Shown here one piece after another: positions 59-64,000 of a stretch of DNA of 64,000 bases (its first letter is position 1; each line of letters opens with the position of its first letter). This DNA is from Candidatus Bathyarchaeota archaeon (GTDB taxonomy: Archaea > Thermoproteota > Bathyarchaeia > Bathyarchaeales > Bathycorpusculaceae). Under the pieces are notes generated by a model, which was not told the origin of the DNA, searched no databases, and saw only the letters and a program-made list of their open reading frames with translations. Where the stretch lies: positions 544,001 to 608,000 of the forward strand of contig CAWABA010000006.1 of assembly GCA_963780185.1 (NCBI GenBank), written 5' to 3'. The position numbers and the translations under genes were made by a program.

Positions 59-1747
59 CTAACTCTTTCCTTTTCGGGTTATAAGCCTCAAAACAAGCAG
101 TATGATGAAGCTGAAAAGAATCAAGATGCCGCAGGCTAAACCAACGGTGAGAGCGTTGACGCCTGGAATCGGCGAGGCGACGCCTCGGATGGCGTTAACC
201 CAGTTAACAATTAGGACTGGCGCAGTTACAAGGTTTGAGGTTACAGCCAAGGTCGCACCTGTTTCACTGACGCTTCGGGCAAAAACGATGATTGCGCCAG
301 AAAGAATCGAGTATTTTGTCAGCGGCAGCACGATTGAGCGGAAGACAGTGAAGGGTTTGGCGCCCAGCGTTTTGGCTGCTTCCTCCATGTCAACGCTAAT
401 CCGCTCCATAGCCGCCCCCATTGACCTGACAAAGTACGGGTACGTAATGGCTAAGTGAGCGAAAACAAGAAGCAGAAACGCAGGTATGCCTGGAACACCT
501 TGCCAGAAGAACTTCAGCGAAACCCCAAGAGCAATCGACGGCACAATTATTGGCACATTGATTAACGTGTCAAGGATGCCTGACACTGTTTTGCCGAATG
601 TATGACGAGAAATCAGAATAGCCATCGGTATCCCCAAGATAATGCCCAGCACCGTTACTATCCCCGCTAATCCGTAAGAGAGCAGAAGGCTTTGCCAGAA
701 GCTTGTCCAAACGCCCGCACCCGTTAACGCCTGAATTATAGGGGTTCCCGAAGCTATCGCTTGGAAAGCAGGCAGGGCAACGAAAAGCGAAGGCACCAAA
801 ACAACAACCAAGAAAACAAACAATGCTAAGCCGTTGCGTGTCCAAGCCGTTTTCTTGTAGCTTAGTTTCTTTTCCAAAACGGGCAAGCCATGTCCGAAAG
901 GCAACTTTATTTTTGGACTTAAAATACGTATCAAACCGAAAATAGTCAATGAAACCGAAATAAGAATTAGGCTTGTGAAGACGGTTGCGCCTTGGTAGGT
1001 TGCTTGCGGAATTTGCCCCTTTTTGAATTGGTTGCTTAATTCCTGCAGGAAGACGGGTCCGTTGACGAAGGCTCCTGCCACGATGAAGGTGGCGCCTGTT
1101 TCTGAAAGTGACCGAGCGAATGCAAGCAGGAACGCCGCAATCAGAGACGGCTTTATGATTGGGAAAGTGACTGTTCGCGACGCGGTCAACGGCGGAGCGC
1201 CGAGGGTTCTTGATGCCCGTTCATACTCCATCTTGTAATCCAGCATCGCGCCGACTATGACTCGCACGACGACTGGGAACGAAAAAGTGAAATGCAAAAG
1301 CATAACTAGAAGCCAGCCCGTAGAAATTATTGGTCCGCCGAAAAGCGTTGAAATTGGTCCGCCGGGCAAGCTCCAGAAAAGCAGAAGCGAGTAGCCCAAC
1401 GCGGCGGTTGGCACGATGAAAGGTATGTCGGCGAAAGTGTCCAGAACGCTTAGCCACTTTGATTTGCCGCGGGTTATAAGCCAAGCAAGCGGGATGCCAG
1501 CGAGCAGGTCTAAGGCGGCGACAACTAAGCCGATGATGAAGGAGTTCCTTATCGCTGTCAACGCGGTGTTCATCAAGGCGGGTTGGTTGATGACGTTTTG
1601 GACTGTCGGTATTTTAATTAATATGCCGAGGATGGGCGGAATAAGGATTAGAGCGAAAAAAACAGCGACCGCCGAGAGATAGAGGGAGTACTTTAAGGGT
1701 TTTTTAGAGGACCATTTGTTTAGTGTGTTCCACAGTTTGCTAAGCAC
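59..1747 (-). CDS. ABC transporter permease with two fused BPD_transp_1 domains (Fe3+/molybdate/tungstate/thiamine-type)
   Basis: 562 aa hydrophobic ORF with two EAA-loop motifs (YERASRTLGA, MEEAAKTLGA) and duplicated FARSxSETGAT. Confidence 0.85.
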   Translation of the reverse strand: MLSKLWNTLNKWSSKKPLKYSLYLSAVAVFFALILIPPILGILIKIPTVQNVINQPALMNTALTAIRNSFIIGLVVAALDLLAGIPLAWLITRGKSKWLSVLDTFADIPFIVPTAALGYSLLLFWSLPGGPISTLFGGPIISTGWLLVMLLHFTFSFPVVVRVIVGAMLDYKMEYERASRTLGAPPLTASRTVTFPIIKPSLIAAFLLAFARSLSETGATFIVAGAFVNGPVFLQELSNQFKKGQIPQATYQGATVFTSLILISVSLTIFGLIRILSPKIKLPFGHGLPVLEKKLSYKKTAWTRNGLALFVFLVVVLVPSLFVALPAFQAIASGTPIIQALTGAGVWTSFWQSLLLSYGLAGIVTVLGIILGIPMAILISRHTFGKTVSGILDTLINVPIIVPSIALGVSLKFFWQGVPGIPAFLLLVFAHLAITYPYFVRSMGAAMERISVDMEEAAKTLGAKPFTVFRSIVLPLTKYSILSGAIIVFARSVSETGATLAVTSNLVTAPVLIVNWVNAIRGVASPIPGVNALTVGLACGILILFSFIILLVLRLITRKGKS

Positions 1748-1998
1748 AGTCCAGCTCCCAAATTTTCAACGTCTGTCTCGCTCAAAGCGCAAGTTAATGC
1801 ATTGTTCAGATATATTAGCTGTTTCTTTAAACGACTGTTTCTCACCATATTTTCGTGTTAGAATATATATTTTTGGAGTTGCCGCCCATAATCTATAGTG
1901 GCGGGCACTTCAACGCTATAGTTTAATAGAAGGCTTTATCAGGTTTAGCCATCAGAATTTTACTTAGGGTGAATTTTTTGGAAGAGAAACATAGGATA

Positions 1999-2262
1999 AT
2001 GAAGAAAAGTTTTGAGACTGAAATGTTTGTTGACAGGAAAAGGTTGCCTTTGAACAATTTTGTGCAGGAAACAATCGGCAACATCATGGCTGGGTTTTCG
2101 AAAACGCGAAAGGTGCTGGATGACGCTCCCGAACTGATTGAAGAGAAAATTAGGCGGCTTGCCAGCTCCAGCGAGTTGACGCCCACGTTTACCCTTGAGG
2201 AGCTAGCTCACGACTTTTCTGAACTGGTACAGTGTTGCGCTCATCGTGATAAGGGCGACTAA
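1999..2262 (+). CDS. small protein resembling the stand-alone MobB C-terminal-like domain
   Basis: FVDRKRLPLNNFVQETIGNIMAG resembles the VDGKxIPLNxFVQ motif; 3' end overlaps the convergent permease and is uncertain. Confidence 0.4.
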   Translation: MKKSFETEMFVDRKRLPLNNFVQETIGNIMAGFSKTRKVLDDAPELIEEKIRRLASSSELTPTFTLEELAHDFSELVQCCAHRDKGD

Positions 2263-2995
2263 ACCGATTACGCCCCAGGCTGGAAGTATTGTGCTCCATT
2301 GGTAGCCGTTGATCATCAAGGCGCGGGTAGCGGTAACGCAGTAGCTTACAGGGTTAAACATAGAGACAGTCTGCACCCAACCAGGCAGGAAACTAAGAGG
2401 AAACAACGCTGGGCTAAGGAACAACAGTGGAAAAGTGATGACGCCGCCTATCGCGAAAACCGTCTCAGAACTCCTTGTCTTCATACCCAACGCTAAAGAA
2501 ATTCCTGACCATGCAAGCCCAAAGAACGCAAGCGTGAAAAAGATAAGCAAAATTCCGACAGCGCCAGTGGTGACATAAAAGGGCTTGTTTTCAGCAGCAC
2601 CCAAAGCGTATCCTAACCCAAGAATTATGGCTGTTTGGACTAACCACTCTGAAGGCGTCACTGGCTAATCTGCCGAGCAGAATCGCGGGACGACTTACTG
2701 GCGTCACAAGCATTTTCTGCAAATATCCCGAGTCAATGTCAGCCACTATCGAGTTTCCTGACTGCAATGCGCTTCCAAAAGCATTTTGCATCACAATTCC
2801 AGCAGCTGCAAACTCAAGATAGGCTACGCCAGCTGGTAATACTCCTGGAAAGTTGGAAAGTTTGCCTAGCAGCTGTGTGAATAATACGAGGAATAAGATG
2901 GGTTGGAAGAGGGAGAAGAATAGCAGGATAGGGGTTCGAACAAGTTTTGTCAGGTACCTTATGAATATGTAGCGGGTATCAGAAAGTAAAGTCAT
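2203..2995 (-). CDS. ABC-2 type exporter permease (one frameshift near 2645)
   Basis: ORFs 2591-2995 and 2203-2661 join into one ABC-2 permease (GYLQKMLVTPVSR; FLSPALFPLSFLPGW; NPVSY). Confidence 0.8.
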
Positions 2996-3001
2996 TTTCG
3001 T

Positions 3002-4000
3002 TTATCTCCTTGCGCCGCCCCACATGGCGCTTGGCGCCTTAACTAGTTCTTCAGTTCGGATTCTTTTGCCGGTGTGCTTCATGAAAACGTCATCCAGCGA
3101 AGGCGAAGAAAACGTTACTGATGCAATCCGAATGTCGCTGCTGTCTAAGGCGCGCACAATATCAGCTATCAGCAGACCAGCGTTTTTGGCGTAAACCGTG
3201 AGGCATTCTTCGGAATCTATTATTTGAGTGACATCCGTCATAGTTTTGATAAGTTCTTTTGCTTTAGTATTGTCTTTCTGGCAGTTTTCAAGTGCAATTC
3301 GAATGGAGTCCGCTCCGATTTCACGTTTTAGATCAATGGGTGAGCCACTTGCAACTATTTTGCCAGTGTCAATTATGGCTAGTCGTTTGCATAGTTTGTC
3401 GGCTTCTTCCAGATACTGGGTTGTTAAAAAGATGGTTATGTCTTCTTCTTTGTTTAATTTCTCCAGATAACTCCAAATGGCTGAACGCGATTGAGGATCC
3501 AAACCAGTTGTCGGTTCATCCAAAAACAAGAGTTTAGGTTTGTGAACAAGGCAGTGGCGAGGTCAAGGCGTTTTTTCATGCCTCCGGAGTAGTTTCTAGC
3601 GCGTCGGTCGGCGGCTGCTTCTAAGCCTACTAAGACTGATAAGTTCGTTTACTCGTTTTTTGATTTCGTCTCCGTCCATCTGGTGGAAGTGGCCTTGAAG
3701 TGTTATGTTTTCTCTGCCAGTTAAGTCGCCGTCGACGGTTGTTTCTTGGCTTTGAACCCCAATGATCTTGCGGATAGCGGCGGCTTGCTTTTCAAGATCG
3801 TAACCTGCGACGGTGACGGTACCCGATGTTTTTCTAAGAAGCGTGGTTAGAATTTTGATGGTTGTGCTTTTTCCTGCGCCGTTTGGTCCTAGAAAACCGA
3901 AGAATTCTCCTTCCTGCACGTTGAAGGAGATGTCGTCAACGGCTTTTGTGCCGTCAGAATAAACTTCAACAAGGTTCTTCACGGAAATAATGTCTGCCAT
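3002..4000 (-). CDS. DrrA-like ABC exporter ATP-binding protein (frameshifted near 3560-3630)
   Basis: Walker A GPNGAGKST in 3596-4000; Walker B FLDEPTTGLDP in 3002-3529; YSGGM signature in the intervening sequence. Confidence 0.85.
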
Positions 4001-61525: not shown

Positions 61526-61678
61526 CCTTTAAACTTTGATTCCTTAGCGCCATTAAACGGTACAAACCGTTATTTAATGTTATATTTTAGGTTCCCTGTA
61601 CTAAGGTTTCGAACATTTGCTTTGAAGCCGTTCTGGGGTAGTTTTTAAATTGCTCCCTGCTCCTTTGTCTGGTTTGTG

Positions 61679-62108
61679 GATGGCTTTGCCTGACGACGAC
61701 TCCAAAGAAGTGCTCAGGGGAACAACGCTGGAAGTTTACCGTTTCCTGCTGAAAAGCAACAAGCCAGTGGGAACACGCGAACTGCAAAGAGCACTCAACC
61801 TAAGCAGCCCCTCAGTAGCCACGTATCACCTGTCCAAGCTGGAGGATGCGGGCTTGCTCAAGAGGGAAGGAGGCGGCTTCACAGTCAGCAAGTACCTTCT
61901 GGAAAACAGCGTCAAAGTCAACCGTTTCTTGATTCCAAGGTTCCTCTTCTATGCCATCTTCGCCGTCGCCGCCCTCGCCGTCGAATTAACCCTGATGAAG
62001 CCCACCGTGCTTACTCGTGAATACGTGTTTTCAGCGCTTGCAATCGGCATACTTGCCGTCTTCTGCACCTACGAAACAGTCAAAACATGGCTCCGAGGCA
62101 ACCTGTAG
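61679..62108 (+). CDS. membrane-bound winged-HTH transcriptional regulator
   Basis: GTRELQRALNLSSPSVATYHLSKL..AGL followed by two C-terminal TMs. Confidence 0.85.
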
Positions 62109-62366
62109 GACACAAAAGATGCTGTCCGAGATGCGTTTTAAGAGAGCGGTTAATCTTTAAGGCTTATTTCTAAAAACTGGAAAAAGATTTTCACAATCTC
62201 CGCGGTATTGCTTGAAATGGGGCTCAGATTGCACTTTTTCTGGCTGCAAAGTCTCGAATAACCGCAAAAACGGCTCTAAAATCAGGGAATTAAACTCTTA
62301 GTTAACTTTAAACGGTTGCTTGAACAATATGAGTGGCACCGATTTGGGACTGGTGGGAAAGGGTTT

Positions 62367-64000
62367 ATGGTTAATCAGCCTCCGCTTCGTGCACGCGGCG
62401 TCAAGGTGCTTAAAGCTGTTTCTTCACCGCTTAGGCTGCAAATCCTCAATTTGCTCTTTGACAGAAGCGCCCTGAGTTACACGGAACTCATGAACGCGTT
62501 GAAAATGAACCCGAGTCGAGACGCGGGCAGGTTCGCGTACCACCTAAAGTTCCTGCTGAAGGCTGATTTGGTTGAGGCGGATGTTGAAGCAAAAAAATAT
62601 TACCTGACTGATTTGGGCAAGATGGTTTTGGATGTGGCTGACCGTGTTGAAGCGAAGGCGGTCAAGCCCAGAGGCATGGTTGTTCGCACTTCGCATTTGA
62701 CGATGGAAGAGTTCGACGCCAACAAAATCGCGAATTCGCTCATAAAAGAGGCTAAGGTGCCTGCGGAGTTGGCGCAGAAAGCAGCGAAAGAAACCGAGAA
62801 ACGCCTGGTCAAGTCAAAAACCAAGTATCTTACCGCCGCGCTAATCCGCGAAGTCGTAAACGGGATTTTGATTGAGAAAGGCTATGAAGACTACCGTCAC
62901 AAACTCACACGCGTCGGCATGCCTGTGCACGAAGTAACTGCGCAGATTGAAGCTAAAGATCAAGCCTCAGATTCAGCAGCCATCATCACCAAGGCGGGTG
63001 AAGCGGTGCTGGAAGAGTACACGCTGCTTAACATTTTTCCAAGAGACATCGCTGACGCTCACCTCTCTGGCGCCATCCACATCGACGGCTTAGGCACCTG
63101 GATAACCAAACCAAATGAAGTCAACCATGACCTACGTTTTTTCCTGCAGAACGGACTCAAACTGGACAATCCCCTGCAAGCCAACATTGAGCCGCCCAGC
63201 ACCTTCGAATCGGCGCTTGCCATCGCGCTGGATGTTTTGCTGCATGCCAACAAAGAAGTCAGCCGAACCCAAACCTGCAGCTACTTCAACGTCTTCCTAG
63301 CCCCATACGCAAAAGGCGTCGATCCAGCGCGGCTTAAAGAAAACCTGCGCCTGTTCATCTTGAACCTGAACCAGCACTCGCAATCGGCGTTAGCGCTTGA
63401 ACTCTCCATTCCCAAAGCGACCGCGGAGAGGGAAGCCGTGGGTCCGAACGGAAAAATCTGCGGCAAATACAGCGACTACGCAGCAGAGAGCCAGCTTTTA
63501 GCTGCGTTGGCAATCGAGGTTTTTTCGGAGGAAAGCCAAAAGAAGCCGCTGCTTAACCCCAAGCTGATTATACGAGTTGGCAAAGAATCCTTCGCGGATG
63601 AAGCCTCAAAGATGCTTTTGCTTAAGGCGCATCAGTTGGCGGCTGAAAAAGGCGCACCTTACTTCGCCAATGCGTCGCGCAAAGAAACCGAAAATGCCGT
63701 CTACTCATCCACCGGCGTTAAACTTACTTCGGATTTGACAAGCGACTGGGAAACCGACACATTGCGCACGGGCTGCCTTGGCTGCGTAACAATTAACATG
63801 CCCAGAATCGCGTTGGAATGCGAGAAGGACAAAAACAAGTTTTTCGACCTTGCCCGCGAACGCTTCGAGCTTGCCGCCCGCGCCTTAGGAATAAAAGGCG
63901 CCGCTCTGAAGCAGTTCGGCAGAAACTCTTTGCCTTTCCTTCTGCGAAACGGCAACGGCGACGTTTACTTCAGGCTGGAAAACAGCAGCCGCATGATTAA
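62367..64000 (+). CDS. wHTH + ATP-cone + class III ribonucleotide reductase (NrdD)-like fusion, runs off window end
   Basis: Open frame from ATG 62367: SSPLRLQILNLL...AYHLKFL (ArsR-like), VVRTS...EEFDANKIANSL...LIREVV (ATP-cone), IADAHLSGAIHI, HDLRFF, PYF, DWETDTLRTG..G.VTINMPRIA (NrdD). Confidence 0.9.
   Translation, partial: MVNQPPLRARGVKVLKAVSSPLRLQILNLLFDRSALSYTELMNALKMNPSRDAGRFAYHLKFLLKADLVEADVEAKKYYLTDLGKMVLDVADRVEAKAVKPRGMVVRTSHLTMEEFDANKIANSLIKEAKVPAELAQKAAKETEKRLVKSKTKYLTAALIREVVNGILIEKGYEDYRHKLTRVGMPVHEVTAQIEAKDQASDSAAIITKAGEAVLEEYTLLNIFPRDIADAHLSGAIHIDGLGTWITKPNEVNHDLRFFLQNGLKLDNPLQANIEPPSTFESALAIALDVLLHANKEVSRTQTCSYFNVFLAPYAKGVDPARLKENLRLFILNLNQHSQSALALELSIPKATAEREAVGPNGKICGKYSDYAAESQLLAALAIEVFSEESQKKPLLNPKLIIRVGKESFADEASKMLLLKAHQLAAEKGAPYFANASRKETENAVYSSTGVKLTSDLTSDWETDTLRTGCLGCVTINMPRIALECEKDKNKFFDLARERFELAARALGIKGAALKQFGRNSLPFLLRNGNGDVYFRLENSSRMI

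Follow-up and report, generated by a model that had tools for sequence, protein, structure and literature searches.

A window of 64,000 nucleotides from the genome of a Candidatus Bathyarchaeota archaeon (contig CAWABA010000006.1, positions 544,001 to 608,000) ends within a gene on the plus strand which joins a winged helix-turn-helix (wHTH) and an ATP-cone to the body of NrdD, the class III ribonucleotide reductase (RNR). The encoded protein, hereafter the target, has lost the radical triad and the elements that bind the substrate triphosphate; its fold, Zn ribbon, wHTH and ATP-cone are under strong purifying selection. We hold with moderate confidence that this catalytically dead NrdD paralogue is a nucleotide-responsive DNA-binding regulator of deoxynucleotide metabolism. 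Its mechanism we infer from the analogy with NrdR and with the ATP-cone control of NrdD. The family, old and widespread among Bathyarchaeia, extends to Nitrososphaerales and to a Thorarchaeota metagenome-assembled genome (MAG). Its recurrent place directly 5' of an RNR gene of either class supports a function as nucleotide-sensing RNR regulator.

The frame is open from TTG 62316 or ATG 62367 on the plus strand and is free of stops up to the window end. ATG 62367 is the conserved start; orthologous loci share the opening codons. In the genome contig the stop lies 586 bases beyond the window end, which gives a protein of 739 aa counted from ATG 62367. Codons 1-544 lie within the window (62367-64000), and the complete coding sequence (CDS) occupies contig positions 606367-608586. 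An earlier interpretation made from the letters of the window, here called the sequence-only reading, had described an open reading frame (ORF) of more than 544 codons, open at the window end, and a fusion of wHTH, ATP-cone and NrdD. The contig bears out the former; Pfam, AlphaFold2 (AF2) and Foldseek agree on the latter.

An ArsR/SmtB-type wHTH comprises aa 14-95 (62406-62651, plus strand). It is followed on the same strand by the ATP-cone with a conserved linker (aa 104-186; 62676-62924) and by an NrdD-like alpha/beta barrel, of which aa 207-544 are in the window (62985-64000) and which extends to about residue 700 in the genome. Outside the window a Zn ribbon and a truncated C-terminus come after the barrel. 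Both HTH_5 (29.7-30.5 bits, cut-off 22) and DUF7347 (31.7-32.1 bits, cut-off 27.6) match aa 14-89 above their Pfam cut-offs; the NCBIfam model HTH_metalloreg scores 32.9 bits, under its cut-off of 55. The ATP-cone (PF03477) is recognized at aa 104-177 with 30.3-32.1 bits (cut-off 25.8). For NRDD (PF13597) the score is 140.6 bits with the window part and 216.6 bits with the full protein.

The AF2 model, calculated from a 103-sequence alignment, has a mean predicted local distance difference test score (pLDDT) of 89.7 and a predicted template-modelling score (pTM) of 0.80. The barrel is predicted with a pLDDT of 90-98. For the N-terminal domain (pLDDT 81-88) the order of elements is helix-helix-helix-helix-strand-strand-helix, as in a wHTH. 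The best Foldseek matches are all class III RNRs, at the top those of S. thermophilus, P. copri, T. maritima and phage T4 (E 6e-27 to 5.9e-19, TM (target) 0.60-0.75). A two-copy complex prediction of residues 1-200 scored 0.05 against a mark of 0.42, a value which counts neither for nor against dimerisation.

An excerpt of the paper on P. copri NrdD names as defining features of a class III RNR the thiyl-radical Cys416 at the finger-loop tip and Cys171 on beta-strand 1, and describes the NxN flap and the HxHD triphosphate motif as substrate-binding elements (PMC11226230). As catalytic reference we used the canonical NrdD of the same genome (contig 10), aligned by BLASTP and MAFFT. The beta-1 site of the target reads KPNEVNHD (K248-D255; 63108-63131, plus strand); the second catalytic Cys is replaced by Glu251 in alignments with three references, i.e., the genome's own NrdD, T4 NrdD and a chain of 9d3x. 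The finger-loop region reads AVYSSTGVKL (A444-L453; 63696-63725, plus strand), and here the thiyl-radical Cys-Arg is gone. In BLASTP the Cys-Cys-Arg of the genome's own NrdD is aligned to Gly450-Val451-Lys452; MAFFT moves the correspondence by one or two residues, and the entire stretch of aa 444-469 is devoid of Cys. The sequence-only reading had given the positions of both motifs exactly. Its claim that both catalytic cysteines are lost is upheld against the genome's own NrdD and, for the beta-1 Cys, against T4 NrdD and 9d3x as well. The pair C470 and C473 of TGCLGC, in which it had seen a possible cysteine for the finger-loop tip, aligns to Ser/Val of the canonical strand and is variable across the family. 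As for the glycyl-radical loop, which it had proposed to look for past the window end, the C-terminus is DRFASI-stop, without Gly-Tyr, where the canonical enzyme has SRVVGYL and a further 34-residue tail. Therefore, the glycyl-radical site is absent, too.

Are these losses peculiar to the target? A homologue search of 1.84 billion cluster representatives yielded 1706 matches, and the query was aligned with 95 representatives of 600-800 aa. All three radical motifs are missing from 79 of these 96 rows; a further 8 rows are active-type, and 9 are partial. The beta-1 Cys and the thiyl-radical Cys are each present in 0/79 dead-clade sequences; the Arg after the latter persists in 1 %. At the glycyl-radical loop a Gly is found in 16 % and the Tyr in 3 % of the clade. 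The NxN flap, whose columns are gapped in the target, is kept in 0-8 %, the N-S of the YTNS loop in 8 %, and the second His of HxHD, which has become H-I-D-G in the target, in 11 %. In nine active enzymes 48 columns are invariant, and at these the pattern is selective: the dead clade retains scaffold positions, among them N477, P479, R480, G548, E551, D610, Y630 and G665, and drops those for radical chemistry and substrate.

The profile scores point in the same direction. With TIGR02487 the target reaches 230.1 bits, under the equivalog cut-off of 326.35, and with NF006126 it reaches 153.8 bits against a cut-off of 548, where the genome's own NrdD scores 1086.6 bits. Judged from its set of residues, RNR chemistry is impossible for the target. 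The proposition of the sequence-only reading that the nucleotide-binding sites are kept needs to be divided: only the ATP-cone is strongly preserved, and most of the clade has lost the substrate-site elements. We infer that nucleotides are sensed by the ATP-cone and not by the former active site. A few members of the dead clade (the L087 and L102 genes; P0136, P0141, P0155) lack both Cys and yet retain R-x-x-G-(Y) or, at the radical position, a Gly. The loss of the glycyl loop apparently came later, and was patchier, than that of the cysteines.

For an analysis of conservation 64 dead representatives were aligned with the query (alignment A2, 65 sequences). Pfam identifies NRDD in 65/65, the ATP-cone in 63/65 and DUF7347/wHTH in 58/65. 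The wHTH is missing from all 8 active-type representatives, in two of which a second ATP-cone takes its place. Conservation within the family is highest in the ATP-cone with its linker; the recognition-helix region of the wHTH comes second. Nine of the 15 invariant columns of A2 are located in cone and linker (V106, I121, L125, E128, R161, L168, R182, G184, P186), and the wHTH residues G54, F56, Y58, H59, Y78 and G84 are each conserved to at least 90 %. The Zn-ribbon residues C707, C710, C721 and C724 are invariant.

The strength of selection was estimated against 15 orthologues. The ratio of nonsynonymous to synonymous substitution rates (dN/dS) is 0.042 for the wHTH, 0.031 for the cone, 0.100 for the barrel and 0.030 for the C-terminus; these values are approximate because dS is near saturation (7 to 12 of the 15 pairs, depending on the domain). 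The dN in the head is threefold below that of the barrel. Further, 80/81 CDS, i.e., those of 80 orthologous loci and the target, have no internal stop. On the strength of its sequences this is a conserved family, not a decaying gene. In a FastTree phylogeny of the barrel a single supported clade of 21 rows takes in all 9 active-type rows; the remaining 76 rows, which are dead or partial, fall outside it. This is compatible with a single old origin of the dead form, the tree being weak and unrooted. Ten relatives of 1000-1700 aa (P0177, P0181, P0185, P0192, P0197, P0203, P0205, P0231, P0242, P0250) match the query in 2-5 separate stretches, a pattern that would fit inteins or other insertions.

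The ATP-cone deserves a closer inspection. The variant VRTS...YLTAPLIRE...R..R.G.PV is common to the dead clade and to active NrdDs (P0183, P0193, P0206), and is found in 11/18 NrdD genes which adjoin dead genes. Since active NrdDs carry the same variant, the cone of the target is probably working. By the same token, duplication of an archaeal nrdD with this cone variant is the probable source of the dead gene. The excerpt on PcNrdD lists Lys7, Arg8, Tyr83, Arg87 and Arg91 as nucleotide contacts of its cone (PMC11226230). The Y..YR....R pattern of the C-terminal cone helix is present in the target, with R177 conserved to at least 90 % and R182 invariant; the residues were matched by sequence only.

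Relatives are encoded by 554 species genomes in the named collection. Among the best 80 of these 554 nearly all are labelled Bathyarchaeia or Bathyarchaeota, with a few Crenarchaeota, Nitrososphaerota or 'uncultured archaeon'; two carry odd labels, probably binning errors. Distant clusters are from Nitrososphaerales/Thaumarchaeota and from one Thorarchaeota MAG. For an even sample of the class we used 151 Bathyarchaeia genomes from 79 genera, with E <= 1e-100 as threshold for presence. The dead gene is present in 102/151 genomes, in 69/95 of those of high quality and in 64/79 genera; in this sample it was not found in families f18 (0/27) and f15 (0/5). The members examined are recorded, e.g., as 'anaerobic ribonucleoside-triphosphate reductase', 'ArsR family transcriptional regulator' or 'helix-turn-helix domain-containing protein'. 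A literature search of the library at hand returned no description of the architecture wHTH, ATP-cone and dead NrdD, and a search by terms of PMC9531940 gave nothing relevant; such sequences may be mentioned in the supplements of PMC9110341 or of papers on RNR phylogeny.

Which genes accompany the dead gene? In 24 genomes from 12 families it is immediately 5' of a canonical NrdD gene on the same strand, and in 6 genomes of family f11 it has the same position relative to a class II RNR gene. This amounts to at least 30/102 genomes with a dead gene, a lower bound because many contigs are short; the counts were read by hand from coordinate tables, and 133 weaker matches exist beyond the matches listed. 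The gene order was confirmed in 20/20 RNR-adjacent loci retrieved, with gaps of about 30-580 bp. Families f11, f20, f29, f21 and f24 possess the dead gene together with a class II RNR, and no canonical NrdD was found in them; therefore, the dead protein is not a mere NrdD subunit. Linkage to both classes of RNR favours a regulator of RNR genes over an NrdD subunit. The sequence-only reading had proposed to look for an intact RNR gene alongside; the target itself has no such neighbour, and other members of the family do. The target is on a different contig from every RNR gene of its genome and thus is not linked to nrdD, and no activase gene adjoins the locus.

The downstream neighbour of the target is pyrB, in convergent orientation. 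In 80/80 close orthologous loci the two genes are arranged tail-to-tail with a median gap of about 15 bp. In other families pyrB is convergent on the 3' side in 12/20 RNR-less loci (9 of them at no more than about 150 bp, 3 others at up to 2.4 kb; 33-43 % protein identity), and it is convergent just past the RNR genes in 11/18 RNR-adjacent loci. The simplest reading of these gene orders is that dead gene, RNR gene(s) and an opposing pyrB followed one another in the ancestor, and that the family of the target lost the middle part. Because the RNR genes sit between dead gene and pyrB in those 11 loci, the pairing with pyrB would be a relic.

On this basis we propose the following mechanism. The ATP-cone would bind ATP/dATP as it does in working NrdDs with the same cone variant. 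Nucleotide occupancy would alter the arrangement of an NrdD-type dimer or of a higher oligomer, and the change in oligomeric state would gate the binding of two wHTH heads to operator DNA at RNR promoters and perhaps at the promoter of the dead gene itself. The barrel would mainly be an oligomerisation scaffold. In the family of the target the RNR neighbours appear to have been lost from the locus; the dead protein is still conserved and therefore must still act in this genome. A more ambitious version, which we regard as rather unlikely, has a transcription factor built on the complete allosteric machinery of an RNR: the cone would read ATP/dATP, the dimer interface of the barrel, the former specificity site, would bind dNTP effectors, and DNA binding would report the balance of dNTPs and not only the pool size. 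Such a protein would serve as the chief regulator of RNR in TACK archaea without NrdR, and in the present genome it would operate alongside an acquired NrdR on a wider set of genes of nucleotide metabolism.

NrdR is indeed present. The only RNR locus found in the genome is nrdR-nrdD-nrdG on contig 10 (64833-69560; ORFs 698-3964 of that stretch); class I and II RNRs were not found in this genome, which is 93 % complete. The NrdR at the head of the operon scores 154.6 bits with TIGR00244 (cut-off 124.65). The sequence-only reading had cast the target as an archaeal analogue of bacterial NrdR. As written this finds no support: since a real NrdR is present, the target is not a stand-in for it here. 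Among the 151 sampled genomes NrdR exceeds the cut-off in 20, namely that of the target, each of the 15 further genomes sampled from its family and 4/27 in f18; it was not found in the remaining sampled Bathyarchaeia. NrdR is stated to be rare in archaea in an excerpt of PMC9110341. Its confinement within the sample to the family of the target and a few members of f18 suggests that the bacterial-type nrdR-nrdD-nrdG operon was acquired by transfer.

Upstream of nrdR (about 585-680 of the contig 10 stretch) a TATA-like box is directly followed by a conserved palindrome and, about 20 nt beyond this, by a second half-site. This resembles the paired NrdR boxes, about three helical turns apart, which are described in the excerpt of PMC9110341. 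With a matrix derived from these boxes the sole strong site of the genome is at the nrdR operon (23.7; next best 17.4), and the regions upstream of the target and of pyrB score at shuffle level. Accordingly, the RNR operon appears to be under NrdR, with the dead gene outside that regulon.

The upstream region of the target has conserved features of its own. A block reminiscent of a B recognition element and TATA box (BRE/TATA-like), TTAGTTAACTTTAAAC, is located about 54 nt 5' of the ATG (62298-62313, plus strand) and would be the promoter; it is conserved to 70-90 % per column over 70 upstream regions (69 orthologous loci and the target). A second conserved block lies 3' of TTAGTTAACTTTAAAC near the expected transcription start. 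The stretch from the TATA-like block to the ATG (62314-62366 of the window) is unusually conserved for non-coding DNA and in orthologous loci contains …AATAATAGGTAG…GCACC…GGGAG…; either an operator at the start site or a leader with secondary structure could lie behind this. When the conserved block 3' of the TATA of the target was used as a matrix, the scan of this genome returned nothing informative, and the window's own site was below threshold. At RNR genes beside dead genes a different element emerged. ACTACAGnATTTTATACAG, followed by a BRE/TATA-like block, precedes the RNR gene in 12/20 training loci, one class II case included. We regard ACTACAGnATTTTATACAG, which is lineage-restricted and absent from the genome of the target, as a lead for some lineages and not as the operator of the family.

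Several observations weigh against a regulator of deoxynucleotide metabolism. In 72/102 genomes with a dead gene no adjacency to an RNR gene is seen. The working RNR operon of this genome has its own regulator, NrdR, with conserved boxes, and no element like the upstream block of the target was seen there by eye, unscored. The best score for ACTACAGnATTTTATACAG in this genome is 17.7, compared with 21.8-29.2 for the training sites; among held-out loci the element was recovered in 3/8, all from genera used in training. By these motif scans, no operator was established for the target in its own genome. The barrel tree is weakly resolved and unrooted (midpoint-rooted display, with long-branch warnings). 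Lastly, textbook ATP-cones have an N-terminal Lys-Arg pair. In the target this is Arg107-Thr-Ser, a replacement nearly invariant in the clade and found in active NrdDs, too.

Other explanations have to be considered. The dead protein may be a non-catalytic RNR partner which heterodimerises with or docks on the reductase or the activase, tunes activity via its ATP-cone and uses the wHTH for protein contacts. The retained barrel and scaffold residues and the 24 genomes in which the dead gene adjoins nrdD would be in accord with such a role, as would the dimeric state of NrdDs and the pairing of their ATP-cones reported in the excerpt of PMC11226230. Against such a partner, the dead gene is also 5' of class II RNR genes, in 6 genomes, it is present in the five families in which no canonical NrdD was found, and it has relatives labelled Nitrososphaerales. 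Moreover, its recognition-helix region, with G54, F56, Y58 and H59 so highly conserved, passes ArsR-type Pfam models, and the target is unlinked to nrdD in its own genome. We consider a protein partner quite improbable. A role in pyrimidine biosynthesis, in which the target would regulate or work with pyrB in this lineage instead of RNR and adenine-nucleotide sensing would balance pyrimidine supply, is distinctly unlikely as well. Co-transcription is precluded by the convergent orientation of the two genes; the conserved promoter and leader that pyrB has for itself show no clear element in common with the promoter of the target, and RNR genes intervene between the two in 11/18 RNR-adjacent loci. 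What speaks for pyrB is the constancy of the pairing, tail-to-tail in all 80 close loci and with pyrB convergent on the 3' side in 12/20 RNR-less loci of other families, at only 33-43 % protein identity.

An enzyme which operates with different chemistry or other residues, e.g., the Cys pair of TGCLGC, appears highly implausible to us, in spite of an intact fold and Zn site and of two Cys on the strand after the finger loop. In the working enzyme Ser/Val stand in place of these Cys, which are moreover variable in the family; the radical Gly, the Tyr and the entire C-terminal tail are gone, NxN flap and HxHD are lost, the score is under the NCBIfam equivalog cut-off, and no activase gene is alongside. 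The loss of all catalytic residues might also be expected of a decaying pseudogene or of an annotation artefact without function. This is contradicted by the selection data, an intact ORF in 80/81 CDS and a dN/dS of 0.03-0.10 in every domain, as well as by the presence in 64/79 sampled genera and by a confident AF2 model, and its probability is practically negligible.

A nucleotide-responsive regulator, as we propose, would combine features of three known systems. With class III RNRs (PF13597; TIGR02487; 1H78/1HK8 of phage T4, 4COI/4COJ of Thermotoga maritima, 8P2S of Prevotella copri, 9D3X of Streptococcus thermophilus), of which it is clearly a homologue, the target shares the 10-stranded barrel, the N-terminal ATP-cone and the C-terminal Zn ribbon, and with them the scaffold motifs AHxSG..H, the N-x-P-R strand, RLA.LD and GG. 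It differs from them by the absence of the thiyl Cys, the beta-1 Cys, the radical Gly-Tyr, the tail and the NxN flap, by a degraded HxHD, by the extra N-terminal wHTH and by scores under the equivalog cut-off. NrdR, according to the excerpt of PMC9110341, is a bacterial RNR-specific repressor made of a Zn ribbon and an ATP-cone, in which an oligomer switch driven by ATP/dATP controls binding to paired boxes. Like NrdR, the target joins a DNA-binding-type domain to an ATP-cone, the dead gene is at or upstream of RNR genes in many lineages, and the proposed logic, adenine-nucleotide state controlling DNA binding, would be the same. Unlike NrdR, it uses an ArsR-type wHTH where NrdR has a Zn ribbon, carries a 540-residue dead enzyme body, has no NrdR boxes at its own promoter and coexists with a genuine NrdR; a search with TIGR00244 gave no match for the target protein. 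With the ArsR/SmtB family (PF01022 HTH_5, PF12840 HTH_20) it has in common the N-terminal 95 residues, above Pfam cut-offs and with the same helix/wing topology in the model. In contrast to ArsR/SmtB proteins there is no evidence of a metal site in the target, and the effector module is the ATP-cone with the RNR body.

Some observations on neighbouring genes remain. Upstream of the target on the same strand is a small protein of 152 aa (61650-62108, plus strand) with an N-terminal HTH_20 winged helix and a hydrophobic C-terminal half, apparently membrane segments. This gene adjoins the target in only 6/80 close loci. Further upstream, on the opposite strand, a hemerythrin-domain protein is encoded. 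In the conserved pyrB promoters of L007-L035, about 1 kb past the stop of the target, the TATA-like box is preceded by an inverted repeat, GTTGC-N9-GCAAC, and a leader of about 45 nt is conserved as well; this could be a pyrimidine-responsive control element. The region upstream of pyrB in the target's own genome looks different; the pyrB start codon is uncertain there. No convincing motif common to pyrB and target promoters was seen by eye, without statistics. In family f5 an ORF of about 100 aa with Cys-x-x-Cys lies between dead gene and nrdD (L089:3252-3557; also L085, L087, L088 and L101); judged by eye only, it is glutaredoxin/NrdH-like. The strict finger-loop pattern is unmatched in 6/18 adjacent NrdDs. 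The one which was read, L089 of f5, has Cys-Cys-Ala, not Cys-Cys-Arg, and the f5 NrdD may be a redoxin-dependent subtype.

The sequences analysed here thus probably represent an undescribed nucleotide-sensing gene regulator that is labelled as an enzyme in databases. Where the label 'anaerobic ribonucleoside-triphosphate reductase' is taken as anaerobic dNTP synthesis, e.g., in Nitrososphaerales MAGs, it would mislead metabolic reconstructions. The genome of the target offers a natural experiment: a dead paralogue has remained under purifying selection despite lost RNR neighbours and a bacterial-type NrdR operon. The transcriptional control of RNR in most archaea is an open question, and the dead NrdD protein is a concrete candidate for the missing regulator. 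If this is true, it would clearly illustrate how an enzyme can become the sensor of the pathway to which it belonged.

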